This document shows positions 16,019-42,756 of a stretch of DNA of 64,000 bases, in pieces (the first letter of the stretch is position 1; every line of letters begins with the position of its first letter). The notes below the pieces were generated by a model. The model was not told the DNA's origin. It made no database searches and was given only the letters and a program-made list of their open reading frames with translations. A program made the translations under genes and the position numbers. The DNA comes from an uncultured Verrucomicrobiae bacterium (lineage in GTDB: Bacteria > Verrucomicrobiota > Verrucomicrobiia > Chthoniobacterales > Chthoniobacteraceae), in contig CAWIKF010000002.1 in the NCBI GenBank assembly GCA_963836755.1, positions 384,001-448,000 on the forward strand. Reading direction: 5' to 3'.

Positions 16019-16510
16019 TTAAAGCTCCGCCTTAAGAGTGTCCCACAACGGCTCCAGGTCCTCATCCTCCAAGGCCCGCATGCGAAAGCGAGGATCAATA
16101 GCGAACGCTGTCTTTAGATAATCCTTGGCCGCTTGCATGTTTCCAAATTGGCACTCGTAACATGCCGGGTTGTAGTGAACCACTGCCACCTTCATGTGGT
16201 GTGTAGTAGCTCGCAGAGGTATCTTTCGAGCAGCTTCGATGGATTCAACACGACGTGTCGCATAGGCCCAGTGAATCCAATGCCAGTAATCCTCTGGGTG
16301 ATATTCCGCCAGCTTTTTAGCCACTGTTTGCATCAGCTCCCAGTGCTGCGTTTGCATATACAATCCAACCTTTACCGCCAATACCTCTGGAAGCTGGCGA
16401 GAGAATGGATCGATCGATTCCAACTCGTTATTGGCTTCCAAATACATCCCCAATTCGATGTATCCTTCGGCCGCGGTTAAGTGACGCAGTTCTTCAGCTT
16501 CAAGGGGCAT
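16019..16510 (-). CDS. Short TPR-repeat protein
   Basis: HLTAAEGYIELGM..EA..EL, WIHWAYATRR, YNPACYECQFG..AK.YL..A, ALEDEDLEPLW. Confidence 0.8.
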   Translation of the reverse strand: MPLEAEELRHLTAAEGYIELGMYLEANNELESIDPFSRQLPEVLAVKVGLYMQTQHWELMQTVAKKLAEYHPEDYWHWIHWAYATRRVESIEAARKIPLRATTHHMKVAVVHYNPACYECQFGNMQAAKDYLKTAFAIDPRFRMRALEDEDLEPLWDTLKAEL

Positions 16511-16997: not shown

Positions 16998-17567
16998 ATG
17001 ATTTCAAAAATGAAGCTCCCCCTCTTCTTCGCCCTTGCCCTGTCATTCGCTCGTCTCTCACAAGCGCAGACCCAGTTCGACCAGGCTTTCCACCAAACAA
17101 CCGCTGCGCTAAACATTCAGGTTTATTTCTCCCCGCAGGGAGGATGCACAGAGGCGATCGTGCGCGAGCTAAACGCGGCGAAGAAGACGGTGCTGGTTCA
17201 AGCATACTCCTTCACCAGTGACGAGATTGCCAAGGCTCTGGTAGATGCCCACAAGCGAGGGGTCGATGTGAAGGTGATCCTGGACAAAAAGGACAACACA
17301 ACAGGCAAATATTCGGCTGCGGCGGATTTTGTCGCTCATGCCAAAATCCCGACCTGGCTTGACGGCAAGCATGCCATTGCTCATAACAAGATCATGATCA
17401 TTGATGGGGAGACGCTGATCACTGGCTCGTTTAATTTCACCAAGGCGGCGGAGCATAGTAACGCTGAAAACCTGCTCATCATGAAAAACGTGCCGGACTT
17501 GATTGCGAAGTACACAGCAAATTGGAACAAGCACCTGTCGCATTCAGAATCTTATGCGGGAAGGTGA
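16998..17567 (+). CDS. Phospholipase D superfamily Nuc-like endonuclease, secreted
   Basis: VYFSPQGG, VQAYSFTS, single HKD motif HNKIMIID, TGSFNFTKAAEHSNAEN, N-terminal signal peptide. Confidence 0.92.
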   Translation: MISKMKLPLFFALALSFARLSQAQTQFDQAFHQTTAALNIQVYFSPQGGCTEAIVRELNAAKKTVLVQAYSFTSDEIAKALVDAHKRGVDVKVILDKKDNTTGKYSAAADFVAHAKIPTWLDGKHAIAHNKIMIIDGETLITGSFNFTKAAEHSNAENLLIMKNVPDLIAKYTANWNKHLSHSESYAGR

Positions 17568-18035: not shown

Positions 18036-21000
18036 ATGCCTCTCTTTTATGAATCTGCGTTTCGCGCCGCTTGCCGTGATCGGCCACCGGCCGAGATCAA
18101 CCGGCTGTGCCCAGACCATTTCCTGCGCTGGGATCGCCTATTTCAGGCGCTCTCGTGGCTGAGCGACGAGCAACGGTGCGATGCAATCTACGGCGATTGG
18201 CTGTGCCAGCTCGATGCGCCGGGCGGCGAAAACCAACTGCTCACGCGTAATCATCTCCTGACCGGCGGCGCGCTCGATGCCCACTTTCTGGCGGAGCTGG
18301 CGCAGAACGCGAACGACGCGGCCGACGGCAAACCGGCGGCCTTTCGCGCCAAGCTCGAAGGCGATTGGCTGCTCGTCGCGAACGACGGGCGGCGGATCAA
18401 CGAGCGCAATCTTTTCGGGCTTTCGCGCTTCTTCGTCCACCTCGGCAGCGAAACCCTTCACGCGCTAACGCAAAAAGAGATCGGCCGCTTCGGAATCGGC
18501 TTCAAGTCGTGCTACCGCATCGCGCGTGAAGTATTCATCGAGAGTTGGGATGCCGCGGGAGGCTTTGCGTTCCGACTGCCGATCGCGCGGGACGGCGATC
18601 TGGAGTCGCATGCGGAAGAGGGGCGACTGCGGCGCGTCGTCGCCGGCCTAAAGAAGGGGGGATGCAGCGTGGAGACTTCCAACGCGGAGCCACAGCGTTT
18701 CGGTTATTGCACGCCGGAGTTTCTCTCACGTCTGCCTGCGCCCGCCCGCGCTTTGGCGCAAAAGTTCGACCGCTCCGAGCGCGGCACGGTCTTTTGTCTT
18801 CACCTCAACAAAGACGGCGCCGCGGAAGTGCGAGAAATCTTCGAGCGAGAGGATGCGGCCGTGGATGAATTGACGCCACTTTTCACGCCCCATCTCCGGC
18901 GTGTGGAGATCGGTGAGGTGGTGCTGGCGCGCACGCAGGCCAGGTCGCAAGCCGATGACGCGGCGGGTAAGATTGAGGCCGTGAAGCTGACGTTGGCGCG
19001 AGAATCAGCGGGCGCTGCCACTAATCAGCGTATGTGGCGGCTGCGAGGGACGGGCGCGGACGACTGGTGGCAGATCGCTCTGGCTGCGGACTCTAAGTTT
19101 CAACTCACGCGCGCCGATGCGGAGGCCGTGGCTGGTTCTGGTCGGGAAGGCGGTGCCTTTGCCTTTTTCCGGCTGGGCGATGTGAAGTGGCCGCTGCGCT
19201 TTCATCTGCACATTGCGCTGCCGACCAATCTAAGTCGCGGTGATTGGACCGACGCCAAAGCCCTCGACGCGGAGATCGCTCGCGCGATGAATGAATTGGC
19301 CGAGTGGCTGGAAAGTCACACGGACCGCTGGCATCCGGGCTGGTCGCCGGCCGACCTGATCGAGCGAGAGCCGGAGGCGGATGAAGGGAGAGCGATCCAA
19401 GCCGTGGCATGCCTTCGCACCGCCGTGCGCTCGCGGAAACTGGTGCGCTCACTGGCGGGCGGATTTGTCACGGGAGCCGCCGCCCGGGGACTCGAGATTG
19501 TAGATCGCGAGGACGTTCGCGACGCATGGCGCCGGCTCGGCGCGCATCCGTGCATGGCGGAACTCGCGCCGCGGCTGGCCTTCGCGAATCCCGTCCTCGG
19601 TATCAAAGCCACGCGCGAAACCGCGCAGGATTGCCTGCGTATCCTCGCTGAAATTGCGGGCGAATCGGCCATCGAACATCCCGACCATGTGCAGGACGCG
19701 ATAGTTGCCGCTCTGTCCATCGAGCCCCCCTCGGCGTCCGCGATCGAGCGGGTCTTAGGGAAGGTGCAACTGCCGCGCGCGGAAGGTCGCACGATTGCCT
19801 TGAGCGAGTTGGCGAGCGCGCGCCGAAGCGCGCATCTCGCGCCTGGCTGGCATCCCTTTTTTGCAGAGCTGCTCAAATGGAACGATCGGCGCCCGGTCGT
19901 CGGCGGCACGGTCTTCGGCACGGCGCTCAGCGGGGCGCTCGATTTCGCGGAGCCGGCGTTCTACGTCGATTGGCACGAGCTGCCGGATTTTCTCTCCACC
20001 GAAGAGTCGTGGAAGCAGCGCGGTGAAGAATTCTGGAAAGATCAGCGCGCGGAATGTCCGCCACGGCACGCCGCGCGCGTCGTCACGGCCCTGCGGCTGC
20101 GGGATGCAGGCGGCCGCTGGCGCGCCATCACCGATTTCTGGCTACACGACGCCCGCGTCCCCGCGTGTTTGGATGACGTATTGAGCACTCACGCGGAAGG
20201 CGCGCGTGTTACGGCCAAGCTGCGCCGCTGGGCCTTGCTCGACGCATACGATCGGGCGGTGGCGCAACATGTCGTCAGTGATCTTCCGACAAAGCTCGCC
20301 GCACTGTTCACCAAATCCGCCGACGCCGATCCGCTCGCGATGCTCGAGGAGGGGCGTTCCGCCAACTCGCGCGCGGCACTTTCGCCCGAATGGCAAAAAG
20401 CGGTCGCCGATGCAGAGCGCGCGGCGGTCGTTTCGTTCCGCGCGACCCATCCGATTTCAGCGACCGGAAAGCAGCTTATCTCCACATTTTTGCCGGTGCC
20501 GCTGCGGTCGCTCCTGCTGAAATGCGAGGAGTTTCAACTCGCTCCCGCGTGGATGACACCATTGGCCGCGAGGGCCGTGGCGCGGCTAAATCCGAATCAG
20601 CCTCTCCCGAGGGTCGTCTTCCCCGAGACGCTGCAGAATGTGGCCAGTCGCAGCGAACTTGCCGAAGCGCTGCTTGCGCAAGCCCATCGATGGGCGGCTC
20701 AAGAACTGGCCGCGCTCGAAATCGCGGCGCTCGATGAGCTATGCCGCGACTGCAACGGGAACACGCGCATCACGCTCGCTCGCGGCAATCCCGACTTCCT
20801 GCGCAACATTCTCGCCATCCCCGCGGACGCTGCCCCGGCGCATTGCGGTGGTGGAAAATGGCAGTGGCACGGACGCCGCCATCTGCCGGCGAGCCTCGCG
20901 CGCGCACCGCGTCTCGTCGCTGCCTGCCTCACGATCGCTGACGCGAAACGGTTGATCGAAAAGCGCGGTGAAAGCATGCCGCTGGCCGAGGACGACGTCG

Positions 21001-23605
21001 CGCCGGAGTTGCGCGCGAACCTGAAGTTCATCGCTGCGCTCGCAGCCACCGGCGGTCCGGCGAATCTCCGCTACGGCGCAGAACTCAAGCTCGTCTGGCA
21101 CCGCGGCGATGAGCCGCTGTGCGAATTGCGCGATCTCGATTTCGCACGCGACGGCGACCATCTCCTCGTCAGCCGCGTCCTCGCACCGCCGGATGTGAGC
21201 GGTTACGCGGATGTGCTCGCCACCTATCTGCGCTTCCACCGCGACCTGCGGTCGTGCGGGCGAGGGAGCAGCGGCAGGGCGCCTTCACGATCTACGAGGA
21301 GCATCGCGACAAAATCCTGCGCGTCTTTCGCCAGCAACTCCTGGAGCGAGTCGGTTATCGCGTCGAGCACGTGCTGCGCGAGCTGCTGCAAAACGCGGAA
21401 AGCGCCTACGCAAGCCAGCGCGAGCCGAAGCCGGCGCAGCGCCCGTTTCTCGTCACCGTCGCTCCAGGCGCTTCCGAAAACATGCGGCGGGTCGAGGTCG
21501 CTCATGACGGGCGCGCGTTCAACGCGATGGACAAGGACGGTCGCGAACGCGACGACACTCACCGCATCGTGAGCCTCGGAGGTGATCGGCAACAAGCGGT
21601 CGAGGAACTGGGACGCTTCAATCGCGGTTTCAAATTCGTTTTCAACGTCACGCGGCGGGTGCAGGTGCGCAGCGGCGCCTATGATTTTTCGATTGTCGAT
21701 CTGCTAATCCTCGCGCCGCCGAATCCGATGCCGCGCGACGGGGCGTTTTCGGCGCGGACGACGTTCGCGTGGGAATGTGCGCTCGCACAGGCCGAAGAGC
21801 TCCTGAGATGGAATGGCAATCGGCCGGTGATCGCGCGCGTTGGCGCGTTTTCTCAGCGGCGCTCGTCTTCTTGCGCGAAGTCACGCAGGTCGTCATCCGC
21901 TACCGCGAGAAAACGTGGAACTGGGCGATCGACCGAAAGGTGGAAGCCGATGGCTGGACACGCGTGCGCGTGGTGAGCGTCGAGGCTGGTGAACAGACGT
22001 TTCGCGTGCTGGCTGCGACTTCGCAACAGCGCTGGGCTGGCGGCGCGCGCCGGCTGGCCGTCGGCTTTGAACTCGATGCGCATGGCCGGCCAAACGCCCC
22101 GCTGCCGCTCCGCTCTATTTGTTTTTCCGAACGGAAACGACAGGGCTGTGCGGGCTGTGGTTCAATGGCGATTTCGACGTGGCCGAAGATCGGCTCGCGG
22201 TGCGTGACAACAGCAAGAACGCGGCACTGATCAAGGAAGCTCTGGCCCTCGCTATCGCGGAAGCGCAGCGGCAGATCGCGGCGCAGCCCGAGGCCGCGAT
22301 GTGGCTGGCGTGGGCGCGCGTGCTCGCGCCGCAGGATGGCCGAGAATGGGTGCGCGCGCGCCTGCACGAGGACACGGCAAATTTGCGTGCCGGCTTCGAC
22401 GCGGCGGCGGCGATGCTGACGGCGGCCATCCCGCACGAGGGACGGCTACGGCGCGCGGAGCAACTGCGGCAGCCGACGAATTTCCTGCGGCGAGTGGCCG
22501 GGAGATTTGCCGCGGCGTGGGAAATCGACGGCTCGGATTGGATCGAACCGGAGATCGGCGCGGAGCTCGACCGATTCGCGGAGCGCTCCGGAAAATTTTG
22601 GCTCGACGACCACATCAAAGAGCACGGTGCGCGGCACGACTTGCTGCGCCGCATCCGCATACGCTCCTCCGCCGGTTTTCCGCAGCGAATTTGTCCGCTC
22701 GGCGATTGAGCAGCAGGAGCACGATCGAGCGCTCAACGCGATCGCCCGCTTTCTTCCCCGCGACCTTGAGCCGGAGCCTGAACCGGCATCGCTTGAACTC
22801 GCCGACCTCCTCGAGTGGTGGGAAGACAAGCGCGATCTCGCGCCTTACACCCTCGATGGGGACTGGTGGCCACTGCTTTTCCCCGGCGCGGAGACGCCAG
22901 ACCGCGCGACCTTCTTCGCGACGTGCTGACTCGGACCGGCGACGACGATGGCCGGCTCGCCTGGTATCAAGTGCTCAGCGTGCCGTGTCTGCTCGCAATT
23001 CCGCGGCCGGTGCAGCGGACGCGCCCGTTCTGGCAGCAAGAGTTGGGGGCGCGAGAATTCTGGAGGCGCACGGCGGCGGAAGGGTTCGGCGCATGGACCG
23101 ATCAGCTCTTCGCGGAGCTGATCGCGCGGCCTTTCGATGATCCCCGGGCCAGCGGCGAAGACGCCGAATCGGGCGGCGCGTCTTTGATGACGTGCGAAAT
23201 CTGCACGCTGGTTTTCGAAAACGATTTCGCGGGCGCGTTGGTCGACGCGGCGGTGCGCGGCATCGGGCTCGCCGATTTTCTGCACAACGGCAACCGCCCT
23301 GATCTGATGCGGTTGACCGTGTCGGTCAAAGCGCCATTGCGCCCGACTTCTTCTGCGGGAAATGCCCGGCTGGGAATTTCCTCGCGGGCGACATGCATCC
23401 ACCTTCGCTCTTCGTATGCCGGCCGGTGCGCCTCGCCGCGGCAGATTATGGCCTGATCACGCCCGAGCAGGCGGAGCGTTACGACTTCGCCGCGCTCCAG
23501 GAAACCGACGAGCAGATCCGCGCTGCGCTCGCCCGTGACCCTGCGGGACGCGAGCTCCTGCGCGATTACGACATCCCCCTGCTGCACTGGAGGCTGACGC
23601 ATTGA
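18036..23605 (+). pseudogene. Large (~1850 aa) protein with two sacsin-like GHKL ATPase domains, multiply frameshifted
   Basis: Domain 1: FLAELAQNANDA, ANDG, IGRFGIGFKS, RGTVF. Domain 2: VLRELLQNAESA, HDG, LGRFNRGFK, RTTF. Protein-like text hops across ORFs 18036, 21119, 21769, 22119, 22507, 22815 and 23393. Confidence 0.8.
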
Positions 23606-26347
23606 GCCTGCCCGTTGCCGGTCAACGTGTGATCCTTCGCCCGCGGCCGGAACTTGGCTTCGGGCGTGTTCGTTTGATTGAGGAGGACGCTTTCGGCGAG
23701 ACCCGGTGCCAGGTCGAGTTCGAGCATCGAGACGGGTATCTCGCAGTGCCACCGGCGGAGCTCGAGATCGTGCCGTGGCCGTGGGAGGAGTTCGCGGCGG
23801 GAGCACTCGGCGTCATCGAAGTTTTCCGCCGCAAGCTACTAGCGGGCGTGGTAGTGGGAGAAAATAATCGCACGGGCGCATTCCTGCGTGCGGCCACTCA
23901 GCCGCTACCGCACCAGGCCTTCCTGCTCGACAAGCTGCTCTCGGGAAATCGCTTCGGGCATGTGCTCGCGGATGACGTGGGCCTCGGCAAGACGGTTGAA
24001 GCCGGGCTGATTATCATGAGTCTTTTGCAGCAGGAGGCGGAGGCGCGCGTCCTCGTGGTTTAGTCCGGCCGGTCTGACGCTGCAATGGCAGGATGAAATG
24101 GACGAACATTTCCAGCTCGTGTTTGCCATCCTGGGCCGCGACTTCAATCCTAGCACCGCCGCGGGCTGGCGCGGTCGGCAGCTCATTATTGCACCCCTCG
24201 ATACGGCCAAGCGCGAGGATCACGCGGCCACCCTTCATGCCGTCGGCCCATTCCACCTCGTCATTTGCGACGAGGCGCACCGGCTTTCCGCGCGACGCGA
24301 ATTCCTCTCCGGGGAGTTGCGGACGACCGCGAACTATCGGCTCTTTCGCGAACTCGTCGAAGACGGACGATCGACTACGTCACGGGCGGCGACGGCGCAA
24401 CCCGCTCGCCGCGGCTGCTCCTGCTCTCCGCGACACCGCACCAGGGCGACGACTTGCGCATCGGCTATTTGCGAAGCTCGTGCGCCCGGATCTCTGCACA
24501 CACGACGACGACGAAGTGACAGCGGATTTCACGTCCGAGAACCTGCGCGAGGCGATCACGCGCACCGCGAAGTCGCGCGCGACGGATTGGCAGGGGCGAC
24601 CGCTTTTCAAAGGCCACGTCGCGGAGACGCACGAGGTGGATTGGACGGAGGAAGAGCGCGAGGTAGCGCGGGAGCTCACGCGTTACATCCAACAGAGCCT
24701 GCTCGTCGCGGAGAATGCGGGAGCCGCGCGCCACTCATCATCGAACTGGTGATGCACACATTTCACAAGATCGCCGCGTCGAGCTGGCACGCGCTCGAGG
24801 AGGCACTCGATCGGCGGCAGGCCGCGCTCCTCGGGGCGGTCGTCGCGCCCTTGGGCGACGACGATCCCGAGACCGATGAAGACGAAACGACGCGCGGCCT
24901 GGCGCAGCCGGAATGGTTTGCGGGCGAACAGCAAATGATCGGCGCGCTGCTTGAGCGCGTGCGCGATCTCGAAAACGACAGCAAATGGGACGCATGCGCG
25001 GACCTGTTGCGCGCGATCGAGGCCGCTGAGCCATGTGCGAAGGTGCTTTTTTTCACGCAATACCGGGCAACACAAAGCGCCCTGATCGAGCGCCTCGCAG
25101 AGATCTTCCCCGATGCGGGCGTGACCGAGATCCATGGCGGCCTCTCGCTTGATGAGCGGCGTGAGGCGCGGCGAAGCTTCGAAGGCCCGGCGCGATTTCT
25201 CGTCTCGACCGAGGCGGGCGGCGAGGGCGTGAACCTGCACCGGGCTTGTCACGTCGATGATCAATTATGATCTACCGTGGAATCCGATGCGGCTGCAGCA
25301 GCGCATCGGCCGTCTCGATCGGTATGGCCAGCAGGCATTAGTGCAGGTGTTCAATCTCCGCGTGCCCGATTCGTGGGACGCGCGCATTTCCATCCGCATC
25401 CACGAGCGGCTCGCCGTTGTGCAAGCGACCATGGGGCCAATCGCCGGCGGGCTGGAGGACTACCACGAGATGATCCTCGGGAACGTCGCCAGCCATGTCG
25501 ATGCGCCGCGCATTTTCGCCGAGTGGCGTCGCGATCCGCGCGCCGCTGTGTCCGACGCGCAGATTGATGATTGGGTGAGGGAAGCGGTCGCATCGGCTCG
25601 CCGATGGGAGCAGCTTTTCAGCCGCGATCTCGGTCTCGGCGCACTGCCGGCGCAGGCGCAGGTGGAAGGCGCGGTCTTCCGCGCCGCTTACGACGCGTGC
25701 CTCGGCGCGCATGGCCTGCGGCTCTCCGACACGCGCACCTCGGCGCAGCAGATCATTCCTGGCGTTTTTCATTTTCCGCTGCCGGCGGAAGTTTCGCGGG
25801 CGGGAATTGCGCGCCTCGCGTGAAGTTTACGTCGTCTTCGACAAGGAGCGATTCGCGGAAGTCCGTGGCGAGGTGCTTGGCCGCGCCCGCGGGCAGGAAA
25901 TCAAACCGGGACTGGCGGGCTTTGGTGAGCCGGTCACCGATTGGCTTTTCCAAAGTGCCTTCGTGCCGCGCCGCGGCGAGAGCGCGTTTGCCATTCGCGC
26001 TGGGGAGGGAATGGACGCACGGCCAAGGCTGGCTCTTTGTCGCGACGCTGCGCTGGCTTGGAGCGGCTCGGCGTCTTCGCGCGCCTGACAGCCTCGCTGC
26101 TTGTTTCATCGCGGACGCGGGCGAACCGCGGCTGCTTTCCGCTACGGAGCTCGCGTCCTTGGCCAAAGGCGCGACGCCATCTTCCGCGGGGGCGGCGTCG
26201 AATGACGCGCCGCACGATGTTGCCCGCCCACTGGTGCAATCGCACCTGCGCGCTCTCGCCGAGCAGCGTGGTGCGCACGCCCGCGCGAACGCCGGTTGGA
26301 ACTGGACGCTATTCGCTCGCGTCGGCGTTGGCGGAGGCTCGACGTAA
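23602..26347 (+). pseudogene. SNF2/RapA-like SF2 helicase, multiply frameshifted
   Basis: LADDVGLGKT, ICDEAH, LLLSATPHQG, VLFFTQY, STEAGGEGVNL, PWNPMRLQQRIGRLDRYGQ spread over about 7 frame changes. Start overlaps the upstream stop. Confidence 0.9.
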
Positions 26348-26380
26348 GGCTTCGCGAAACCATCTTCACGCACAAACTCT

Positions 26381-29362
26381 ATGAAAACCACACTCCCCTT
26401 CCGCCATCTCTCGATCCGCGTCCCGTGGCACGATGCGGGTTGGGACGGGACGGTGTGCCAGAGGCCGCTGAGTAACAACGCGTGCCTGTGTTTGAAAGGC
26501 ATCAGCGAAAGCCGCGACGATCCGTGGGAGGCGGCGCATGCGGGCGAGGCGATGGCCGACTTGCCGGACAAAGTGCCGCCCTGCCTGCGCGAGCGGGCGG
26601 GCTTCATGTCGGGCCGGCCGGTCACGCTCTCGCTCACACACAAGCTCGGGCACGACGAGGACTACGAGCACATCCAACCGACGCCGCTCGAGATGCCGGC
26701 GTGGTCCGCGCCCGGCGTGCCTTTCAACTGGCTGAACCGCGCTGGCGCCGCCGCGCGCGAGGAGCGGCTGGCGATCGGCTACGATACCGGCCGCGAGCCG
26801 ATGGACCGCTGGAAAGCCACGGGCACGTGGGTTCTGCATCCGGAGAATCAGCGCGCGTGCCTCGAGTCGTTTTGGAGCGCGATCGTGCCGGGGCGCTCGC
26901 TCGTCTTTTTCTACGCAAAGGCGATTCCCGGCGTGGAGGACAACCGCCGCGTGCTCGTCGGCGTGGCACGGGTGAGCGAGCTGAAGCCGCTGCGCGAATA
27001 CATCAAGGGCGACCCCGCGGGCGTCGGTGCGTGGATGTGGGAGCGGCCGGTGCTCCACACGTTGCGCACCGATTTTCGCGACGGATTTTTGCTGCCGTAT
27101 CAGGCCCTGCTCGCGGCGATCGACGTCGGGCAGCCGCTGCATCTGCCGGAATTCGTGGCCTTCGCGCCGGAGGAGCATCGGATGGAATTCAGCTACGCCA
27201 CGGAGCACGTCACCGGCGACGCGGCGCTCGGCGCGCTGGAGGAAATGCGGCGCGCGCTAATGCGGTGCTCAGAGGTGGTGCCCGGGCCTTGGGAACGCGT
27301 GCAGGCGTGGATCAACGACCGAATCATCGAGGTGCGCCGGCAGCGCGGAGCCTGCCCGGGGCTCGGGGCGGCGCTCACCGCCTTCGGGCTGCCGCTCGGC
27401 GAGATCGTGGCCGCGGCGCTCACCGCGGAGCTGCGTGACGACGAAGATCCGTGGGCGCGCGTGGAGGCCGCCTTCGCCGACCCGAAGAAACTCCCGGCGC
27501 CGCTGCGCTCGCAGATCACCGTGTCCTTGAAAGGAAAGTGGAAGGTGCTGACGAAGCCGCGGCGCGCGTGGCTACGCCTGCTCTCTCGCCTGGCGCTCAC
27601 CGCGGATCAGGCGGGCATGCTGTGGGACGAGGCGGAGCGCATTTTCACGCCGATCCGCGCCCGCGAGAGCGAGCTGCTCGCTAACCCGTATCTTATCTGC
27701 GAGCAGTGGTCGCAGCCGGCGGTCAAGGAGGAGGTGTTGGAGGATGAGGAGGGCAAGGAAACCGAAAGCATCACGGTCGTTCCGGCGCCGGGATTTTGGA
27801 CGGTGGATCGCGCGGTCTATCTGCCGGCGGCGCTGGCGGCGCATCATCCGCTGCCTGGGCCGGAACCGGCTTGGGAGCGGGACGATGCGCGCCGCGTGCG
27901 CGCCTTGCTCGGGCACGTTCTGCGCGCGGGCGAGCGCGAAGGCCATGCGGCCCTGCCCTTGCCGCTGCTTGTGGAGCGAGCCGCCGCCCTCGGGCTCGAG
28001 CCGCCGCTCGGCGTCGATGCGGGGCTCATCGCGGCGCTGCGGGAGACGTGGGACGCGGCCGCGGAAGAGGACGATGCGCCCGAGGCGGAGCTCGTTTTTC
28101 ACCAGCTCGCCGAGGGCGAAATCATGGTCCAGACCCGCGCGCGCGAGGAGGTCACGCGCATGATTCGCGGCCTGACGCGGCGCGTCCGGAAAATGAAGCG
28201 GCTCACGGTTGCGTCCAATTGGCCCGCGCGGCTGCGGGACAACCTGCCGCCCGACGATGGCACGGCGCGCGAACGCAAAGCGCGCGAGGAAAAAGCCGCG
28301 GCTCTCGCAGAGCTCGCGGCGTCGCCGTTCGCAGTGCTCGTCGGACCAGCCGGGACAGGAAAGCCACGCATTCTGCGGACGCTGATCAATGAACCGTCGG
28401 TGCAGCAGGGCGGCGTGCTGCTGCTCGCGCCGACGGGCAAGGCGCGCGTGCGCTTGCAAACGCCGACGGCGTATCCGGCGAAAACGGTCGCGCAATTCCT
28501 AATGCGGCTGCATCGCTACAATACGGCGACGGCCGCTTATTTCATGAACCCGGACGAGAAGGGCGCGACTCAGCTCAAGACGGTGATCGTGGATGAGGCG
28601 TCGATGCTCACCGAGGACCAGCTCGCAGCGCTGCTCGATGCGGTGCGCGCAGCCGAGCGGGTCGTGCTCGTCGGCGATCCGGGGCAACTACCGCCCATCG
28701 GCGCGGGGAAGCCGTTCGTCGATCTCGTGGAAGCGCTACGGCCGGCCGAGGCCTGCTGGCCGCGGGTTGCGCAGGGTTATGCGGAGCTCACGCAGCGCAT
28801 GCGGCAGGATCAGCGCGACGAGCGCGTGCCGCTCGACGTGCAACTGGCTCCGCCTCAGCCACTGCGCAACGGTTTACGACGGTCAATTTGGACGAACCGG
28901 AGTAGCGCGGCGCCCGCATCCGGTCAAAGTGAAAGACGCCGCCAGCGGACGCGAAGGTTGGTATGAGCAATACCTGATTCATCGGACGCGCGCTGGGACA
29001 CTCGTCAGCTCAAAAGCGGAGGTGGTGGTAGCCAACGAGCTTGATTACGCCCGCGAGAAACGGTGGCTGACCTATGGATACGAAGAGCGCCTCCCGCGGC
29101 CGACGGATCTAGCCGCCTTCCGGACTTCACCATTCGTGACGAGATAGGCCGCACCTTTTACTGGGAGCACTGCGGCATGCCTGACGATCCCGGGTACGCG
29201 GAACGTTGGCAGGAAAAGCTCGCCTGGTATGCCCGGCAGGGTATCGAGCAATGGCATGAGACCGAACGGCCTGACGGACAGTTGATCGTGACGCAGGATG
29301 CCGGAGGCCGATTGGACGCTTCGCGAGTGAAGGAGATTATTCGGACAATTTTTTCCGGATAG
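26381..29362 (+). pseudogene. RecD-like SF1 helicase with C-terminal PD-(D/E)XK-type nuclease, internally deleted and frameshifted
   Basis: HLSIRVPWHD N-terminus, GPAGTGK, LLAPTGKA, VIVDEASM, LVGDPGQLPPIG, then LIHRT..VSSKAE, PDFTI..YWEHCGM..Y..RW..K..WY. No AxTVHKxQG motif in any frame seen. Confidence 0.85.
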
Positions 29363-29407: not shown

Positions 29408-30805
29408 TTGTGGGTTTTGGGAATGGAGTTCGAATCTGTGCTGAAAACGGCAAATGGCCTACTCGATCTCGGATTGTTCGAGGAAGCAGCGAAGGAGTTG
29501 ACGAGGGTGCCTGAAGAAGAGAAAGCACGGCCGGCTTTTCTCCGGGCGTTGCTGCGCGTTCAGCTCGCGCTTGGACACTCTAAAGCTGCAGCCGAGACCG
29601 CAGCGCAACTCCGCTGCAGGGACAAATACTTGCTATATGGAGCACTCGATATCTCCATAGCACTGAGTTTTGCCGGAAGGCTTATAGAGGCACGGTCGGT
29701 AATGGAGGCATTTGCACAATTCAAGATGGGTTATCCTTCGGAGGCTTATCATATGGCCTGTCTGGAATCGCGTCTCGGAAAATTTGAAGCTGCGACGCGC
29801 TGGCTTCATCTGACTTTGCAGCAATCCGAGGTTTACTGCACCAAAGCGCCCTTCGACTCCGATCTTATTCCACTGTGGAAATCTGTCAGGAGTGAGCCGC
29901 TTACATTGGAACAAGCACACCTGCTGCTCGATCCCTGCTTTGACGTTCTACTCGGGAAGAGTGCTGGCGATCTAGCACAGAAAAGTCAAATCGACTCCAA
30001 CGATTTGCGGGCTTTTCCGGAGAGTTGGAAGCGACTCTTTCGGTTCGACCCGACGAAGGGACTTTTTACAATTCATGCTTTGACGGCGACTCAGTTCCCC
30101 TTTCAACGAGATGCTTGTCTCGCTTGGTTTCGCAAGCGCGCGGAAATTTTCCTTCGCAATCTGCAAATTGGCCGCGAACGGGCGTTGACTGTCGTGTTGG
30201 CAGCACAATGCGAATATGCACTCAAGTATTTGCAAATCGGCAACTATTTCGCCGCGCGATGTCATCTGTTATGGGCTCTGGCCAAGAAGCCGGAGTTTCT
30301 CTCAGAATACCGCTGCCACAAGGATTTGCACGCAATGCGCTTTCTCCTCGACGAAATTCATTGGGCCAATGGCATTGATCCGCAATGGAGTCATTTTCTC
30401 GTTCGAGCATGTTTTCCTAGCGCAGAGATGAATGTGCCGGAGCTTCTTGAGGATGTGCCGGTCGCGCTACGAAACACTTCCCTATACTTGTTGCAAATCG
30501 GTTCTGTCGCTCAGGAGAACGGAGATTATGTCCCAGCCGTTCAAAGCTGGATAAAGCTGTCCGCGAATTGGGCGAAAGATATCGTGGGATATGCAAATGG
30601 TGTGACCTGTTTGCTGCACATGCGGATGTGGGACCGGGCTAGAACCCTTCTGTGTCTTGCGCCACGAGCATATCGATCTTTCCACCTCTGCCGCTCACAA
30701 TGCCGTCAATTGCGGCTGCGCAATATTGAGGCCGACGCGCCCCCAGCTACTTTGCCATTGCATTGGCAACCCGAAGTGGGACGAATCGCGAAGGGGTATT
30801 CCTGA
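29408..30805 (+). CDS. TPR-repeat protein
   Basis: LKTANGLLDLGLFEEAAKEL and YHMACLESRLG...FDSDLIPLW resemble the 16019-16510 protein. Likely start is the ATG at 29423. Confidence 0.75.
   Translation: MWVLGMEFESVLKTANGLLDLGLFEEAAKELTRVPEEEKARPAFLRALLRVQLALGHSKAAAETAAQLRCRDKYLLYGALDISIALSFAGRLIEARSVMEAFAQFKMGYPSEAYHMACLESRLGKFEAATRWLHLTLQQSEVYCTKAPFDSDLIPLWKSVRSEPLTLEQAHLLLDPCFDVLLGKSAGDLAQKSQIDSNDLRAFPESWKRLFRFDPTKGLFTIHALTATQFPFQRDACLAWFRKRAEIFLRNLQIGRERALTVVLAAQCEYALKYLQIGNYFAARCHLLWALAKKPEFLSEYRCHKDLHAMRFLLDEIHWANGIDPQWSHFLVRACFPSAEMNVPELLEDVPVALRNTSLYLLQIGSVAQENGDYVPAVQSWIKLSANWAKDIVGYANGVTCLLHMRMWDRARTLLCLAPRAYRSFHLCRSQCRQLRLRNIEADAPPATLPLHWQPEVGRIAKGYS
30642..30764 (+). repeat. 123-bp direct repeat, copy 2
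   Basis: 119/123 identical to 2963-3085. Confidence 0.95.
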
Positions 30806-30857: not shown

Positions 30858-31439
30858 TCATCTCCCCGCGCGAATGAGCGCGAGCAGTTCGCCGAGCAAA
30901 TTGTCGGCATTAACCGGCACTTCTCCCGCTTTCAGTTCACCCGCGAGTTTAGCGTCGAGCTCGATCGCTTTCAGTTTGTCGGGCATTTTAATAGTAATGG
31001 TTTCGAAGCCGTTCTCGCCGTCTCTCTTCGCTGCCCACACCTGGCAAAGTCGGCTATTTTGATCTACTTCTCCAATCGGAGTGGTCACCACCGAGCGCAA
31101 GTAGGCGCGCTTCTCTTGTAGCGTTAGCCTCGTAGAGGCATTTTCCGATTCCCTGAGCGCCTCGAGTTGCTTTTTGACGTTAACATTAGTCAACAAACGC
31201 GACCCCGCGGATTTCGCCGTCGTTCGATCCGGACATTGATAAGCTTCCGCATAGGCCTCGGTAGCGGTTTTGCCCAGCACATAAAGTCGACAAAAAACGC
31301 TTTGACGACCGTTCAGTGAAGGGGTTCTGTCCGCATCGCATTCGGCCGCTTTTTTAATTGAACGCAGAAGCCTACGTCCCGGTGGCTTACCGATTTTCTC
31401 GGAAGGTGACGGGTCGTGATCATGATCGTTTACTTCCAT
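30858..31439 (-). CDS. terS: Terminase small subunit
   Basis: LNGRQSVFCRLY...TATEAYAEAY...AKSAGSRLLTNVNVKKQL HTH and IKMPDKLKAIEL C-terminal motif. Start uncertain (31439 or 31478). Confidence 0.8.
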   Translation of the reverse strand: MEVNDHDHDPSPSEKIGKPPGRRLLRSIKKAAECDADRTPSLNGRQSVFCRLYVLGKTATEAYAEAYQCPDRTTAKSAGSRLLTNVNVKKQLEALRESENASTRLTLQEKRAYLRSVVTTPIGEVDQNSRLCQVWAAKRDGENGFETITIKMPDKLKAIELDAKLAGELKAGEVPVNADNLLGELLALIRAGR

Positions 31440-31505
31440 GGACCCGATGGCTGCTATCGCCACAGCCGTAAAGGGCAATTCTTTTTTTTGACAAATGTTC
31501 GGCCC

Positions 31506-31587
31506 GCGAGGGGACGCAACTCGTTCAAAAAGCGGTCGGTTTTTGAACAGCGTTGTTTTCCTCGCAAAAGGAGGGGAGTTTTTGAAC
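31506..31587. repeat. Long imperfect inverted repeat upstream of terS
   Basis: GCGAGG..CAAC..GTTCAAAAA-gcggtcgg-TTTTTGAAC..GTTG..CCTCGC, plus a third GTTTTTGAAC at 31578-31587. Confidence 0.7.
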
Positions 31588-31767
31588 GGATGATGTGAGA
31601 AGCAGTCCCGTAAAAAAACTCACGTTAATTAGCTCCTCCTTAATTCGATCCCTGGGCGATTCCGGGTCCAGCGAAGTGCAGTTACCTATTGGGCTGATAC
31701 TCGAATCTGCTTGTTCTCGTTCCAGGTTCATTTTACGGTATTGAGTCTTCAAGAATTTGCGGGCGCT

Positions 31768-32082
31768 GCAGCTGGAACACGCGAAGGAAGTGGTCGAGGC
31801 GGAGAAGCAGGTCGATCCTGTGGAGGAACGGAACCGGGCCAAGGAAGCCCTGACGGAGTTATTCAACGAAGCCAAAGGCAAGAACACCCACATCATCGTC
31901 GAGCGCATCGTGGCGGACATCGACGACATCGTGAAAAGGTGCGGTTCCCCGACTGGCAGCACACGACCCAGGGCGAACGTCTCGTGCAAAAAGAACTCCG
32001 TCGCACCCTGCTCAAATACAAGCTTCACACCGACCAGGAGCTGTTCGATAAGGCTTACGGCTACATCCGGCAATATTATTGA
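31768..32082 (+). pseudogene. hsdR: Type I restriction enzyme R subunit, C-terminal fragment
   Basis: AKEALTELF...IVERIVADIDDIVK/VRFPDWQHTTQGERLVQKELRRTLLKYKLHTDQELFDKAYGYIRQYY*, frameshift near 31937. Confidence 0.75.
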
Positions 32083-32209
32083 GGCCTCCGAGGGCTCGCT
32101 TCCGTCGCGGTAAATCGCGTCGAGCAGACTGGCTGCATTTCGGTCAGCCCCCCGGATTCCACGTGACCCAGACGTGCCGATATCTCCCGTGTAGAAAGGG
32201 GTCATATTG

Positions 32210-33055
32210 TCATTCCATCTTTTGCTTCTCCCGATCGTAGGCAGTGGTGATGTAGGCGGCGGCGTTGCCTCCGCCCGCCGCTTTTTCGGCCGGTGTCTTA
32301 GCTTTCCAATCGGATACCGCAAGCGCCATTGCCCGTCTGGTCAACTTCAAGCGCTTCATCCACATTGCACCGTTCGTGGCCATTTCCCGCGGGCCGACAG
32401 CGTTGCAGAGGTCCCGCCAGACTTCATCATCGATAGTCTCCTCAGTTCTCGCGAACGTGGCAGGAGCGACCGTTCCAAGGCTCTCGGTGCTCTGCCGGTG
32501 AGTCGAATCCTTCCCACTCGACTGAGCCCGAATTGATGGCGCACAAACAGTCGGCGAACCCTTCCAGAGCGACCTGGCTTCGCGCGCGCTGAGACTCGGT
32601 ATTTTGAGTCCTCTTTTCATACCTCTTTTCGTGTGAACTCAGTTCACACTTCTCCGCCTTCCCGCATCCACGGATGTTTGAGGAAACGATACCGTTTAAC
32701 GCCTCCCCTTCCAGTTCCGTCCCGCTCGATAAGATGGCGATTCTCTAGGGAAATTAACGATATTCGATGATCTGCGGCTTCGACTGATCCCAACCTGGTT
32801 CGCGATCGTCGAATGCGAGGCCCACACGACGCCGTGATTACCCGCGAAAAAAACTAGCCGTGCATATACCAGCTTTTCTCCTGGCGTTGCCTCCGGCCTG
32901 GAGAGCAGCCACAGCGGTAGCGGCGCATAAAGCTCATGCTGCTTCTGCGGGATGATGCGCTCGCGCGGCCATGCGCACTCTAGCGGGGCCTTGCACAGCT
33001 TGTTGTATTCGCGCGGCTCCACCGGCTCGTCGTGGGCTCCGGCAACCGTCAGCAT
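32210..33055 (-). pseudogene. Phage-type replication initiator (N-terminal winged HTH), disrupted
   Basis: PLWLL...TPGEKLVYARL..FAG..G..WASHSTIANQVGISR, then a CELSSHEKRYEKR linker and a C-terminal helical domain (32210-32620) in other frames. Confidence 0.6.
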
Positions 33056-33396
33056 TTTCTGCGCGGCATTGAGGGCGCGTTTGTTTGCGTCCCGAGCCTT
33101 GTCATTCGCCGCGCCGGCTCTGAATGATCAGCGCGATAGTAGAGAGGAAAGATTGCTTGTCCTTCTTCTGTATTTTGCCGAAACCAGGAACGCGCGTGAA
33201 ATACCGTCCCTTGGCTTTGCATTGTGCCAATGATTGACACGTTGCCACCAAGCCCAATCGTCAGCGTGCCATCTGCATTTTCGACATACTCGACATCGAC
33301 ACCATTCGCGCCCCGAAAAACCTTCTGGCGGTTGGTTGCGAGGTCTGGCGCTTCGTCTACGGTGAAGAGCGGGAGCTGGGCGGGCTGTGAACTCAC
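33049..33396 (-). CDS. Hypothetical protein (possibly frameshifted N-terminus of the rep gene)
   Basis: Start overlaps the upstream stop; co-oriented in the integrase operon. Confidence 0.45.
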   Translation of the reverse strand: MSSQPAQLPLFTVDEAPDLATNRQKVFRGANGVDVEYVENADGTLTIGLGGNVSIIGTMQSQGTVFHARSWFRQNTEEGQAIFPLYYRADHSEPARRMTRLGTQTNAPSMPRRKC

Positions 33397-33707
33397 GCCG
33401 TGCGCTTGGCGGGTTTGCCGGTGGGGAGGGCTGGTTTGGTGTTCGCCTTTGGATTGGTGAACTGGCGGCTAAATTCGCCGCGTGCCGCGCGATAATTGAA
33501 CTCGAGGATGGACTCGTGCGGCACATAATGCCGCCCGGCGATGTTAACCGTTTTGATCCAGCCACGTTTGCGAAATCTCCATCCGCTCACGGGCGAAAGC
33601 CCCATCTCAGCAAGAAATTTGTCAAGGCTGACGGGTGGATGCGCCTCTCCCGTCGTTAAGCACAACCGGGCTTTCGTCTCAATTCTTTGCGTAGCTGCGT
33701 TGAGCAT
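33393..33707 (-). CDS. Excisionase/AlpA-like HTH DNA-binding protein
   Basis: SLDKFLAEMGLSPVSGWRFRKRGWIKTVNIAGRHYV, a MerR/Xis-type winged HTH near an integrase. Confidence 0.7.
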   Translation of the reverse strand: MLNAATQRIETKARLCLTTGEAHPPVSLDKFLAEMGLSPVSGWRFRKRGWIKTVNIAGRHYVPHESILEFNYRAARGEFSRQFTNPKANTKPALPTGKPAKRTA

Positions 33708-33776
33708 CGCGACATTTCATGTCAGGAGCTCTCTGAACACAAATAGACATGGTGAACTTTTATATCTACCTGAGGA

Positions 33777-34359
33777 TCAGTCACAAAATTTAAGTCCAAG
33801 ATTAGCTGCATCCTTCCAAAGTTGACCTCGCGGCCCCATTGAATGAGGATATCTTGGGCACAGGGCCTTAAATTCGTCTCTCCATTCCGCACGCGTAGGG
33901 AACTCACCGCGATTCCCACACCTGACGTAATTCCAAGAGCGAATCATTTCATTGCTCTGTTTATCAACGTAACCCCCAGGAACCTTCGAGCGGTCGATCA
34001 CATCGGCAACCGAGCGGAAAAAATCAGCATTCCGTTGTCTCAACGCTTCGATGAAATCCGTTAAGAGCTCTGCCACGGGTTTCTCGCACTCTAATCGTCG
34101 CGGGTGGAATGGGACGTTTGCCTCCTTCATATAGCAGTCGGAAGTGCATGGCTACTTGATCCATGGGATCCTTGCTTTTTTGGGCTTGCCGGATTTCTTT
34201 GGGCGAAGGTGGTGGCAAAACGGGATGCAAGAAATCCAGTGCTGTATAAGTCTTCCGCGCGAGCTCATCAAACCTTCCCAACTTCACGTTCAATTCACTA
34301 TCACGAAAAGATTGAGAGGCCGCCGGCGCACCTTTCCGATTGATAAATTTAGGTTTCAT
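33777..34359 (-). pseudogene. Hypothetical protein downstream of integrase, probably one frameshifted gene
   Basis: Overlapping ORFs 34024-34359 and 33777-34130; starts 3 nt after the integrase stop. Confidence 0.45.
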
Positions 34360-34362
34360 GAG

Positions 34363-35571
34363 TCACGCGACAGCAACAACACCTAAACCAAAGTTTAGTC
34401 GTCGGGCGGCCTGCCGACGATGATCTTGCAGCAGATGCCCATAAACTTTCCCGACCAGGATTCCCCCGTCTTTATGCCCCATCCAGGCGGCGATGGTCAT
34501 AAAATCGAGTCCTGCCATGACGCAAAAGCTGGCGAACCAGTGGCGAAGATCATGAAAGCCTACCCATTCCAGGTTCGCAGCCGCGCGCGCCAACCGGAGG
34601 CTTTCGCGAAAGGTGCGGGCATGTTCATCGCGAGAGCCGCGCTGAGGCGAGGGGAAGAGCCATGAGCAATCGGGCGCACGACGCGCGGCCATGTCACGCA
34701 GTAAAGCGCCGAGCCGTTCGTTGAACTCCACCTCCCGGGTCTCGCGATTCTTCGAGACGCCCCCGGCCCCGATGAGCACGCGTTCTTCAGCGAAATCCAC
34801 ATCCACCCAACGCACCTTGAGCGCTTCCTGTTCCCGCGCGCCGCTGTAGGCAAGGAATCGCAGGTAGTCGGCGAACTGCACCGCATTCTTCGCGCACGCG
34901 ATTGGCACCGCGGCGAGCAATCGCTCGAATTCTGCCGGCGTGAGCAATCCGCGCTTCGGCGACTCGGGTTCTTTGAGTTTTTTCAGTTTGAGTGAAATCA
35001 AATCGGCTTCGCGCAAATAACCGTCATCGACTGCACGCTTAAGCACATTGCGCAGCGCGACCTGATCGAGGTTCACCGTGCGCGGCGAGAGGCCGGCCCG
35101 CAGCCGCTTGTCCTTGAAGCTGGCAATCATCGGTGTGGCGATGCGGTCAATGCGCACATCCCCCAAGTGCCGAATCCAACGATCGAGTGCCTGCCGTTCG
35201 TTTTCGAGCGTGCCAGGTTTTTTCTGCGCGATCTCGGCTTTGCCGAAATACGTTTCGACGTAGGCAGCGAGCGTTGGCTTGTGCCCGCACGTCGGCAGTG
35301 CACGCTCGCGGCGGGCGTTGCGCAGAACATCCATCGCCTCCTTGGCTTCGTTGAGCGTCTCGACCGGCGCGCCATCGGCGGTGCTCAGGGGGAATTTGCG
35401 CGCTGTCTTTTTGCCGTCGTTGCGGTCCATCCAAAGCTGGCCGTAGAAGCGGCCGTTGCGGGAATAGATTCCCCGCACTCGGCGGTTGCGCGAATCGCGG
35501 ACGCCGATAAACTGCGCCGTATGTGGATGAGCTTCCTCCGACGTGTTTCTTTGCCTTTCGATGCATTTCAT
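34363..35571 (-). CDS. int: Tyrosine recombinase / phage integrase
   Basis: FLAYSGAREQEAL (R), SKNR (K), FHDLRH (HxxR), WMGH...VYGH (H, Y). Intact and 59 bp from the tRNA. Confidence 0.95.
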   Translation of the reverse strand: MKCIERQRNTSEEAHPHTAQFIGVRDSRNRRVRGIYSRNGRFYGQLWMDRNDGKKTARKFPLSTADGAPVETLNEAKEAMDVLRNARRERALPTCGHKPTLAAYVETYFGKAEIAQKKPGTLENERQALDRWIRHLGDVRIDRIATPMIASFKDKRLRAGLSPRTVNLDQVALRNVLKRAVDDGYLREADLISLKLKKLKEPESPKRGLLTPAEFERLLAAVPIACAKNAVQFADYLRFLAYSGAREQEALKVRWVDVDFAEERVLIGAGGVSKNRETREVEFNERLGALLRDMAARRAPDCSWLFPSPQRGSRDEHARTFRESLRLARAAANLEWVGFHDLRHWFASFCVMAGLDFMTIAAWMGHKDGGILVGKVYGHLLQDHRRQAARRLNFGLGVVAVA

Positions 35572-35630: not shown

Positions 35631-35712
35631 GCCAGGGTGGCGAAATTGGCAGACGCGCCAGACTTAGGATCTGGTTCCGTAAGGAGTAGGGGTTCGAGTC
35701 CCCTCCCTGGCA
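35631..35712 (+). tRNA. tRNA-Leu (anticodon TAG)
   Basis: Acceptor stem GCCAGGG/CCCTGGC, anticodon arm CCAGA-CTTAGGA-TCTGG, variable arm TCCGTAAGGA, T arm AGGGG-TTCGAGT-CCCCT. CCA not encoded. Confidence 0.97.
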
Positions 35713-35982
35713 CTTCTTCTGTAATTGCCCGGTGGGTGCAAGATGTCATGCTCCATCCCTATGCTTCCGATTAAGTTAGCCGCCAATGAATCTGTGGACA
35801 AAGTGCATGCTAATCCGGACCATCGATCAAATGACGTGCTTCGGAAGCACCACCACAAGGCGGTGCCCGAAAAGATTCGGAAAGGTTCTGGTCTATTCTT
35901 CTGAGGAGCGTCACTGACTTGAAAACGTTGGGAGCGAACGAAACCAAAACTTCAAGCTATTTGCTCCCGGACACGCCGCTGC

Positions 35983-42701: not shown

Positions 42702-42756
42702 CAGACTTAGCATCTGGTTCCGCAAGGATTAGGGGTTCAAGTCCCCTCCTTGGCAC
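42702..42756 (+). repeat. att site: duplicated 3' part of tRNA-Leu
   Basis: 50/55 identical to 35659-35713, from the anticodon stem to the discriminator base. Confidence 0.93.

Follow-up and report, generated by a model that had tools for sequence, protein, structure and literature searches.

A tandem GHKL ATPase with a predicted glycosylase-fold tail and an SNF2 ATPase form a conserved gene pair in bacterial defence islands

Organization of the locus

The window, a stretch of 64,000 nucleotides from the genome of an uncultured Verrucomicrobiae bacterium, contains three co-oriented genes between positions 18036 and 29362, the existence of which was confirmed. Gene 1 (18036..23605, + strand) encodes a tandem sacsin/GHKL ATPase of ~1,860 residues, composed of two GHKL modules, each with its transducer (18260..19325 and 21260..22290 on the + strand, boundaries approximate), a helical spacer, and a C-terminal domain with a predicted HhH-GPD (OGG/EndoIII-like) fold (22800..23602, + strand, start approximate) that lacks the canonical Lys and Asp and is likely a base sensor. 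Gene 2 (23602..26347, + strand) encodes an SNF2 ATPase of ~915 residues that is of the RapA/DrmD/BrxH type and carries a family-specific C-terminal region; its TTG start (23602-23604) overlaps the TGA stop of gene 1 (23603-23605). Gene 3 (26381..29362, + strand), a separate gene whose ATG at 26381 follows the gene 2 stop at 26347 with a spacing of 33 bp, encodes a PDC-S68 RecD2-like helicase with a C-terminal nuclease-like domain. An earlier note on this DNA had described the same arrangement, with the stop/start overlap at 23602-23605, the 33-bp gap, and the tandem sacsin-like GHKL ATPase, SNF2, and RecD-like domain calls, all of which hold. It had also reported that no methyltransferase is present, in agreement with a PADLOC scan of 24 ORFs that returned none and with the lack of a convincing motif in 15800-36500.

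The cassette has a GC content of 64-69%, compared with 50-60% on its flanks. A TPR protein gene (29408..30805, + strand) separates it from a group of phage-like genes that forms the integrase end of the element (30858..35571, - strand) and includes a terminase small subunit, a replication-initiator-like HTH protein, small ORFs, and a tyrosine integrase. Within this region a protein search identified the C-terminal remnant of an hsdR gene (31757-32082, + strand), for which a DNA-level search found nothing. The location of the cassette one gene away from a phage-like module with an hsdR remnant, and its defence-island setting, are as first described. A tRNA-Leu(TAG) gene (35631..35713, + strand) is the likely integration site. 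No att-type repeat was found within 12000-40000; a 42-bp repeat of the 5' half of the tRNA-Leu lies 51 kb upstream and outside the window (G000:C2:368524-368565), and it is therefore probable that a single island includes the entire left part of the window.

As assembled, the copy in this genome reads as broken. Frameshift-aware alignment to intact homologs spans profile positions 1-1857 of gene 1, 8-914 of gene 2, and 9-1270 of gene 3, and reveals 8, 7, and 2 frameshifts, respectively (17 in total), with no in-frame nonsense stops in the three genes. Additionally, gene 3 has an internal deletion of ~860 bp (~285 residues) near 28850-28910 that removes the C-terminal part of the helicase. Only 2 of the 17 frameshift sites are near runs of four or more identical nucleotides, against a background of 9.7%, and classic homopolymer errors are thus not supported as their source. 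The earlier judgment that the copy is probably inactive fits the assembled sequence, although assembly errors may account for some of the indels. Loci of the pair are often broken: among the 25 that could be judged, at least 8 are.

The conserved unit is a gene pair

In 20 of 21 distinct full-length loci, an SNF2 gene lies directly 3' of a tandem sacsin/GHKL gene of ~1,900 codons, with its start about -8 to +59 bp from the gene 1 stop, and in genome G115 the SNF2 gene follows a divergent, 2,436-residue member of the gene 1 family after 8 bp. When 400 genomes of the phylum were searched with profiles of the family-specific C-terminal regions of genes 1 and 2, both gave strong matches in one and the same genome. 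Furthermore, the pairwise identities of gene 1 correlate with those of gene 2 (rho 0.88 over 18 loci, reached in 0 of 2000 permutations), a pattern that kinship alone could produce. What is conserved is a unit of two genes, not three: genes 1 and 2 are inherited together as a module that occurs in defence islands. We found no description of the pair in the literature searched.

Gene 3 behaves differently. The earlier note had proposed a sensor-translocase-nuclease machine of three genes, with the RecD-like helicase-nuclease as its effector, and had suggested looking for the three-gene order in other genomes. That order did not recur: at 19 full-length loci of other lineages gene 3 never comes after the pair, and it was found in 1 of 15 genomes that carry gene 1 (incomplete MAGs), so the three-gene machine is not supported. 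In addition, PDC-S68 occurs without the pair in two genomes (G200 and G340) and is unlinked to it in G115. A contig from another run spans the gene 2-gene 3 junction itself, and a third run contains a deletion derivative that implies the same order. PDC-S68 genes also lie within 10 kb of gene 1 at 4 of 43 distinct loci, compared with 3 of 400 genomes of the phylum, which hints at a looser partnership rather than at independence; the four nearby copies are of different subfamilies, and the window adds a further case. An obligate three-gene system is largely refuted by the counts and we consider it highly improbable. In this lineage gene 3 sits in the cassette with the pair as a defence candidate in its own right.

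The pair itself is rare and patchy, with gene 1 matches in 0 of 60 related genomes and 1 of 400 genomes of the phylum. No relatives of gene 1 were found among viral contigs and GenBank phages, and a plasmid search returned no full-length member of the near family. Three plasmids, from Deinococcus and Trichormus, carry distant relatives of ~2,450 residues in which the tail motifs are preserved and an SNF2 gene follows downstream. Intact two-gene versions are available in MAGs, and a cultured Deinococcus (sp. QL22) carries distant ones on a plasmid.

The selected neighbouring ORFs that were scanned include defence-type genes at 14 of the 22 full-length loci. The kind varies between loci (BREX, SIR2-HerA, type I/III RM, DruE-like, UvrD-like, and Mrr), and the distant relative in Trichormus adjoins DISARM. 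At 7 of the 22 loci there is no defence gene among the scanned neighbours, and apart from the pair, any given neighbour cluster is present at no more than 5 of 43 mapped loci. It is conceivable that the pair is an accessory that feeds what it senses to resident systems (BREX, DISARM, RM, Mrr, PDC-S68) and is not protective alone. The frequent adjacency to such systems, the recurrence of different PDC-S68 subfamilies, and the lack of any effector domain detected in the pair are consistent with this, but there is no one conserved partner, and at several loci the scanned ORFs include no such system, and we regard an accessory role as unlikely.

Two unequal ATPase modules in gene 1

The ATPase assignment of gene 1 is supported by a match above cut-off to NF047352 and by structural matches to GRP94 and sacsin SR1. 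All of the 50 homologs have the catalytic Glu/Asn, the Gly lid, and the transducer Arg in module 1, and these residues are also present in the window. Module 2 maintains the Glu, Asn, and Arg, but its motif II has an invariant His and its lid has Asn in place of Gly. The spacer between the ATPases, a barely tested region, gives weak matches to helical-repeat folds, none above Z 5.7. There is no Pfam match to DUF3684 in the gene 1 family, and Atlas feature matches include clusters with 17-18% DUF3684 (ranks 16 and 18). DUF3883 (NOV_C, PD-(D/E)xK) has no Pfam match in 7 homologs and 21 tails, and no fused nuclease or McrB domain was detected by Pfam, NCBIfam, PADLOC, or fold search, in which the spacer was barely covered. 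Neither protein of the pair contains a recognizable nuclease or other effector domain, and no nuclease or methyltransferase is conserved with the two genes.

A predicted glycosylase fold in the gene 1 tail

The tail of gene 1, which the earlier note had overlooked, is the source of the specific sensing hypothesis presented below. An AlphaFold2 model of the C-terminal half of an intact homolog, rather than of the isolated tail, was used (pLDDT 85). Residues 512-793 of this model match the OGG of T. maritima (3n0u) with Z 13.2 and an rmsd of 3.5 (199/209 aligned), and ~18 further entries of the HhH superfamily match at Z 6.7-9.9. The C-terminal ~285 residues are thus predicted to adopt an HhH-GPD DNA-glycosylase fold, with the qualification that a Z of ~13 is possible for helical folds. 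The HhH fold is undetected by sequence: a PDB profile search with the tail gave a best E of 0.23, Pfam returned nothing consistent on 21 tails, and hhalign of the tail against one OGG-like sequence gave a probability of 0.4%. Foldseek on the C-terminal half listed only Hsp90-family chains. A search with the tail among proteins of 181-578 residues returned 16 strong matches. These carry no Pfam domain and appear to be pieces of gene 1 family members, while other fusions may exist.

The register of the catalytic positions was set by manual alignment to an OGG sequence and not by superposition. In this register none of the 50 homologs has a Lys in the HhH stretch, and the position of the canonical Asp is occupied by Cys (32), Ser (17), or Asn (1), which suggests that the Lys/Asp pair of glycosylases has been lost from the tail. 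The tail does contain invariant polar residues (Glu1710, Arg1716, Tyr1720, Asp1721, Lys1724, and Asp1848 in P0002 numbering), and these could point to an active glycosylase with relocated catalytic residues that excises modified phage bases while the ATPases scan or regulate. Such a pair would need no nuclease, which would explain why none is found, and the HhH glycosylases Dag1 and Dag2 are described as defending against phages with modified guanine (bioRxiv 10.1101/2025.10.29.685425, in the passages available). Against this, the Lys-Asp pair that Dag1 uses is absent here by the manual register, and the invariant Glu/Asp/Lys motif is not visibly kept in distant relatives. We judge an active glycosylase to be improbable, about as much so as an accessory role.

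A proposed sensor, clamp, and motor

We propose, with roughly even confidence for and against, that gene 1 and its SNF2 partner are a candidate sensor-clamp-motor defence module directed against phage DNA with non-canonical bases. The tail would bind and flip a modified base without cutting, as END nucleases have been proposed to do with their inactive EndoIII domain; ATP binding would then close the GHKL modules around the marked DNA like a clamp. The two modules of a single chain might pair asymmetrically for this, with module 1 as the catalytic one. The SNF2 motor would be loaded and translocate, blocking phage transcription or replication, or it may instead hand the DNA to a nuclease encoded elsewhere. 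More tentatively, and with well below even expectation, the pair could be a cross-phylum immune module free of both nuclease and methylase, in which two unequal GHKL ATPases close on each other as a single-chain clamp. A dead glycosylase that recognizes modified phage bases would gate this clamp, and the chain would load its own RapA-like SNF2 motor, which would stop the phage without DNA cutting.

A role outside defence, in the repair of DNA lesions or adducts or in RapA-like clearing of stalled RNA polymerase, would be compatible with the predicted glycosylase fold, with a RapA_C-like C-terminal region in the SNF2 protein (a lead only), and with the logic of MutL, a GHKL protein that loads a helicase. 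However, the pair is rare and patchy, foreign in GC content, located in islands, and often broken, and we find this role doubtful, more so than either an active glycosylase or an accessory.

Phages with chemically modified DNA evade restriction and CRISPR, and few known systems exploit the modification. If the sensor-clamp-motor module is confirmed, inactive-glycosylase sensing would reach beyond small nucleases to a large machine that is driven by ATP and has no obvious nuclease, and the pair would provide a bacterial model for the workings of tandem sacsin-type ATPase repeats.

Comparison with known systems

System models were taken from PADLOC-DB 2.0.0 (copy of 2023). There is no match at full score to BREX, DISARM, Zorya, Druantia, or Hma, as the earlier note had held; its description of the whole locus as an undescribed system does not extend to gene 3, which matches the PDC-S68 model with E 9e-249 (827 bits over positions 3-793, plus 1082-1219). 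PDC-S68 is catalogued as a single-gene candidate in the set of Payne et al. (bioRxiv 10.1101/2024.01.29.577857), and the PDC systems are as yet untested. Gene 3 matches this model at both ends, and the window copy is without the ~285 residues that hold the C-terminal helicase part. Gene 2 belongs to the same SNF2 branch as DISARM DrmD, BREX BrxH, HmaA, and RapA (best bits 308-322), but it scores below the DrmD and DpdE cut-offs, lying far below that of DrmD (610) and below true BrxH (1,382 bits), and the cognate methyltransferase and core partner genes of DISARM, BREX, Hma, and Dpd are not conserved with it.

With Dag1 and Dag2, gene 1 would share the use in defence of an HhH superfamily fold (predicted in gene 1) that is unlinked to known glycosylases by sequence; the available passages of that preprint (bioRxiv 10.1101/2025.10.29.685425) mention no ATPase or helicase. 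The END nucleases, as described in the available part of PMC12191111, also have a C-terminal OGG/EndoIII-like domain (predicted in gene 1) without catalytic residues, for which a role as sensor of hypermodified phage DNA has been proposed, and they likewise occur in defence islands with no cognate methyltransferase. Their domain is fused to PLD, NucS-like, or McrB-like domains, while that of gene 1 is fused to tandem GHKL ATPases with no nuclease found.

With Tiamat (TmtA) and Tiamat-like proteins, gene 1 shares a sacsin-type GHL ATPase, the transducer Arg, and a long helical spacer, and the PADLOC TmtA models match its ATPase parts with E 1e-10 to 1e-29. Helicase neighbours, Swi/Snf included, are common for Tiamat-like GHL ATPases according to the available text of a preprint (bioRxiv 10.64898/2026.09.30.754977), the main text of which, to that extent, mentions neither glycosylase nor HhH. 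Unlike Tiamat, the gene 1 family is without a Pfam DUF3684/DUF3883 match and has two ATPase modules, the predicted glycosylase-fold tail stands where Tiamat has a PD-(D/E)xK nuclease, and gene 1 is accompanied by a near-obligate, nuclease-less SNF2 partner.

The cassette and its likely island

The cassette (window 18036–29362, + strand) holds three genes in the same direction, as the earlier note had described: gene 1, a tandem sacsin/GHKL ATPase (18036–23605); gene 2, an SNF2 ATPase of ~915 aa (23602–26347), which overlaps gene 1 through a TTGA start/stop at 23602–23605; and, after a 33-bp gap, gene 3, a RecD2-like helicase that is PDC-S68 in PADLOC (26381–29362). The source genome (3.18 Mb in 4 contigs, completeness 96%) contains a single copy, with a GC content of 64–69% vs 50–60% in the surroundings.

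On its right side the cassette is followed by a TPR gene and then by a terminase small-subunit gene, the remnant of an hsdR C-terminus (66% over 47 aa vs a type I restriction endonuclease), a replication-initiator-like HTH gene, and an integrase that adjoins the 5′ end of tRNA-Leu(TAG). The 5′ half of this tRNA is repeated (42 bp) at C2:368524–368565, where the repeat itself is not a tRNA gene, and the region G000:C2:368524–419670 (window start to 35670) is likely an island of ~51 kb bounded by the repeat. Glycoside hydrolase genes also lie within it, and no capsid or primase match was found among 12 ORFs examined. The hsdR remnant of the satellite-like module proposed earlier is present; in place of a small satellite we infer the larger island. 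The 3′ part of the tRNA recurs with 91% identity at window 42702–42756, which suggests a second element of ~7 kb on the right side of tRNA-Leu(TAG). Just upstream of the cassette is a NucT-like phospholipase D nuclease gene with a signal-peptide-like N-terminus (16998–17567, + strand), absent from all other gene 1 loci examined, and proteins with a 'TPR end-of-group' domain flank the cassette on both sides (16019–16510 and 29408–30805).

Conservation of the gene 1–gene 2 pair

We retrieved 53 loci; L018 and L054 were dropped as weak matches, and the remaining 51 represent 43 distinct loci. An SNF2 gene starts about −8 to +59 bp from the gene 1 stop in 20 of the 21 distinct loci with a full gene 1, the exception (L041) having a different gene after gene 1 and then the contig end. 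The family defined by the C-terminal 316 aa of gene 2 comprises 124 clusters, and 12 longest-contig sizes are common to this family and the gene 1 list (52 vs 120 values). Among 400 genomes of the phylum, a profile of the gene 1 tail (its C-terminal ~285 residues) matched one, and the SNF2 C-terminal profile matched the same genome plus one weak match. Identities of genes 1 and 2 are correlated across 18 loci (rho 0.88), a correlation that kinship alone could produce.

Genome G115 encodes a 2,436-aa gene 1 member with SNF2 8 bp downstream, and this protein matched nine plasmid records, four of which were examined. Plasmids of Deinococcus sp. QL22, D. wulumuqiensis, and Trichormus variabilis carry a tandem ATPase, ~2,450 aa long or split, adjoining a related SNF2, with tail matches that are weak and correctly positioned (E 9e-6 to 6e-4 in a 15-protein set); the fourth, from Haematobacter, has neither tail nor SNF2. 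In T. variabilis ATCC 29413 plasmid C (L076, 9947–26839), the distant split tandem-ATPase gene and SNF2 lie tail-to-tail with a DISARM cluster of cytosine methyltransferase, DrmC, and DUF1998.

Gene 3 does not share this conservation, and the three-gene system of the earlier note is not borne out in order or co-occurrence. PDC-S68 follows SNF2 in 0 of the 19 loci whose downstream sequence extends for 500 bp or more and was detected in 1 of 15 gene-1 MAGs (themselves incomplete), so we rejected the three-gene model; an obligate system of this kind is highly improbable. Three of the 400 phylum genomes have PDC-S68, two without the pair and one (G115) unlinked to it. Four of the 43 loci (L017, L019, L033, L044) have divergent copies, with 27–55% mutual identity, on the upstream side of gene 1, PDC-S68 is found near gene 1 more often than the 3/400 genome frequency suggests, and close relatives of the window cassette keep the three-gene order. 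The upstream copies and the kept order argue against full independence from the pair. As far as the available text of 10.1101/2024.01.29.577857 describes it, PDC-S68 belongs to a set of 145 candidates without experimental test.

ATPase modules and predicted C-terminal fold of gene 1

The gene 1 family is compact, with 56 matches, 50 of them full-length at 1,857–1,926 aa; without filtering, the search yielded 74 representatives, of which 35 had E 1e-30 or better. Most of the named records come from Verrucomicrobiota and some from Planctomycetota. The protein contains two sacsin-type GHKL modules (NF047352 scored over cut-off), with motif roles as commonly assigned in GHKL ATPases. The catalytic Glu and Asn of module 1, its Gly lid, and its transducer Arg are retained in 50/50 homologs. 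In module 2, Glu, Asn, Thr, and Arg are retained, motif II has an invariant His, and Asn replaces a lid Gly; because the altered residues are invariant, the sequences suggest a different, selected role rather than decay. Module 2 motifs are canonical in distant relatives. An N-half model (pLDDT 80) places a GHKL domain and transducer at 63–446, and the spacer is helical with weak fold matches.

The C-half was modelled from the intact homolog L021 using AlphaFold2 with 21 sequences (pLDDT 85). Residues 11–350 match GRP94, topoisomerase VI, and sacsin structurally, and residues 512–795 match the HhH-GPD glycosylase superfamily, a fold invisible to the sequence methods applied. The best tail match in the structure search was T. 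maritima OGG (Z 13.2, rmsd 3.5, 199/209 aligned), with human OGG1, queuine salvage DUF2419, EndoIII, AlkA-type, and MutY entries at Z 6.7–9.9. Catalytic positions were mapped by hand alignment of the tail to OGG sequences, including two PDB variants substituted at a Lys and an Asp that we take to be the catalytic pair. In this alignment the tail HhH stretch has Lys in 0 of 50 homologs, and the position of the OGG Asp is Cys in 32, Ser in 17, and Asn in one. The tail is predicted to be a glycosylase fold without Lys/Asp. Other polar residues in it are invariant, which leaves room for an active, non-canonical glycosylase with a relocated site, a reading we consider unlikely. By comparison, the antiviral HhH glycosylase Dag1 (10.1101/2025.10.29.685425) works with a Lys-Asp pair. 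An archaeal-type OGG-like protein below the family cut-off (L072, G153:C78), found in 1 of 150 phylum genomes, keeps both Lys and Asp.

Integrity and neighborhood of the pair

The window cassette contains 17 frameshifts and is free of nonsense stops; the loss of ~285 aa from gene 3 is probably real. For many of the indels, assembly error has about an even chance. In its favor, a 91%-identical protein is continuous across the break at 21245, though broken elsewhere, the additional bases at 25789 and 26010 are missing from a contig of another sequencing run (X2), and other frameshift clusters occur in the genome (background 120 calls per 3.18 Mb). Real decay is favored by frameshift sites that are not homopolymer-enriched, by run X3, which shows 918 letters vs 58 in the window, and by a second X3 contig without 21992–26483; an indel missing from relatives need not be missing from the window strain. 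Two of the other frameshift clusters lie at G000:C2:351400–354600 (8 calls) and C1:544700–551100 (14 calls), the latter resembling a type I restriction-modification locus. In the gene 3 Walker A (28345–28375), Pro-Arg vs Thr-Thr in homologs comes right after the Lys, a further sign of error or damage.

Elsewhere, no fewer than 8 of the 25 loci that could be judged hold broken copies (truncation, frameshift, fusion, or IS insertion), and such frequent damage may mean that the module is costly to keep. Truncated, internally deleted, or IS-interrupted copies occur in L003/L020/L022, L007, L017, L040/L043, L002, L005, L009, L036, and run X3; two internal deletions fuse gene 1 to mid-SNF2.

Three scans of selected neighbors (54, 37, and 2 proteins) place defense-type genes at 14 of 22 full-length loci, with kinds that vary between loci, and no conserved methyltransferase or nuclease was found among neighbors of gene 1 loci. 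We give low probability to the pair being an accessory to other systems, and a repair or housekeeping role is less probable still. L012, L035, and L044 each have an Mrr-type nuclease just ahead of gene 1.

Proposed mechanism and comparison with known systems

The pairing, motifs, and genomic context are observed, and the fold of the tail is predicted; we give about even odds to the following mechanism: the tail would sense non-canonical bases, the GHKL ATPases would clamp, and SNF2 would translocate and then block the phage or serve a nuclease in trans. No nuclease motif was seen in gene 2, and its C-terminal region is linked by Atlas to RapA_C-like regions, as a lead only.

Gene 2 scores 308 bits against DrmD (cut-off 610) and 322 against BrxH (true BrxH, 1,382). 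The available text of the Tiamat preprint (10.64898/2026.09.30.754977) describes nuclease replacements and helicase neighbors, Swi/Snf among them; this main text makes no mention of a glycosylase or HhH, and its figures or supplements could contain the gene 1 family. END nuclease fusions, in the accessible part of PMC12191111, are PLD, NucS-like, and McrB-like only, and that of PMC3710099, which treats sacsin, has nothing on a tandem sacsin/GHKL, HhH-tail, and SNF2 architecture. We found no description of the gene 1–gene 2 architecture in the literature searched, mostly without subscription papers. Genes 1 and 2 form an apparently undescribed two-gene module built from known defense parts, one that brings a specific, testable sensing hypothesis.
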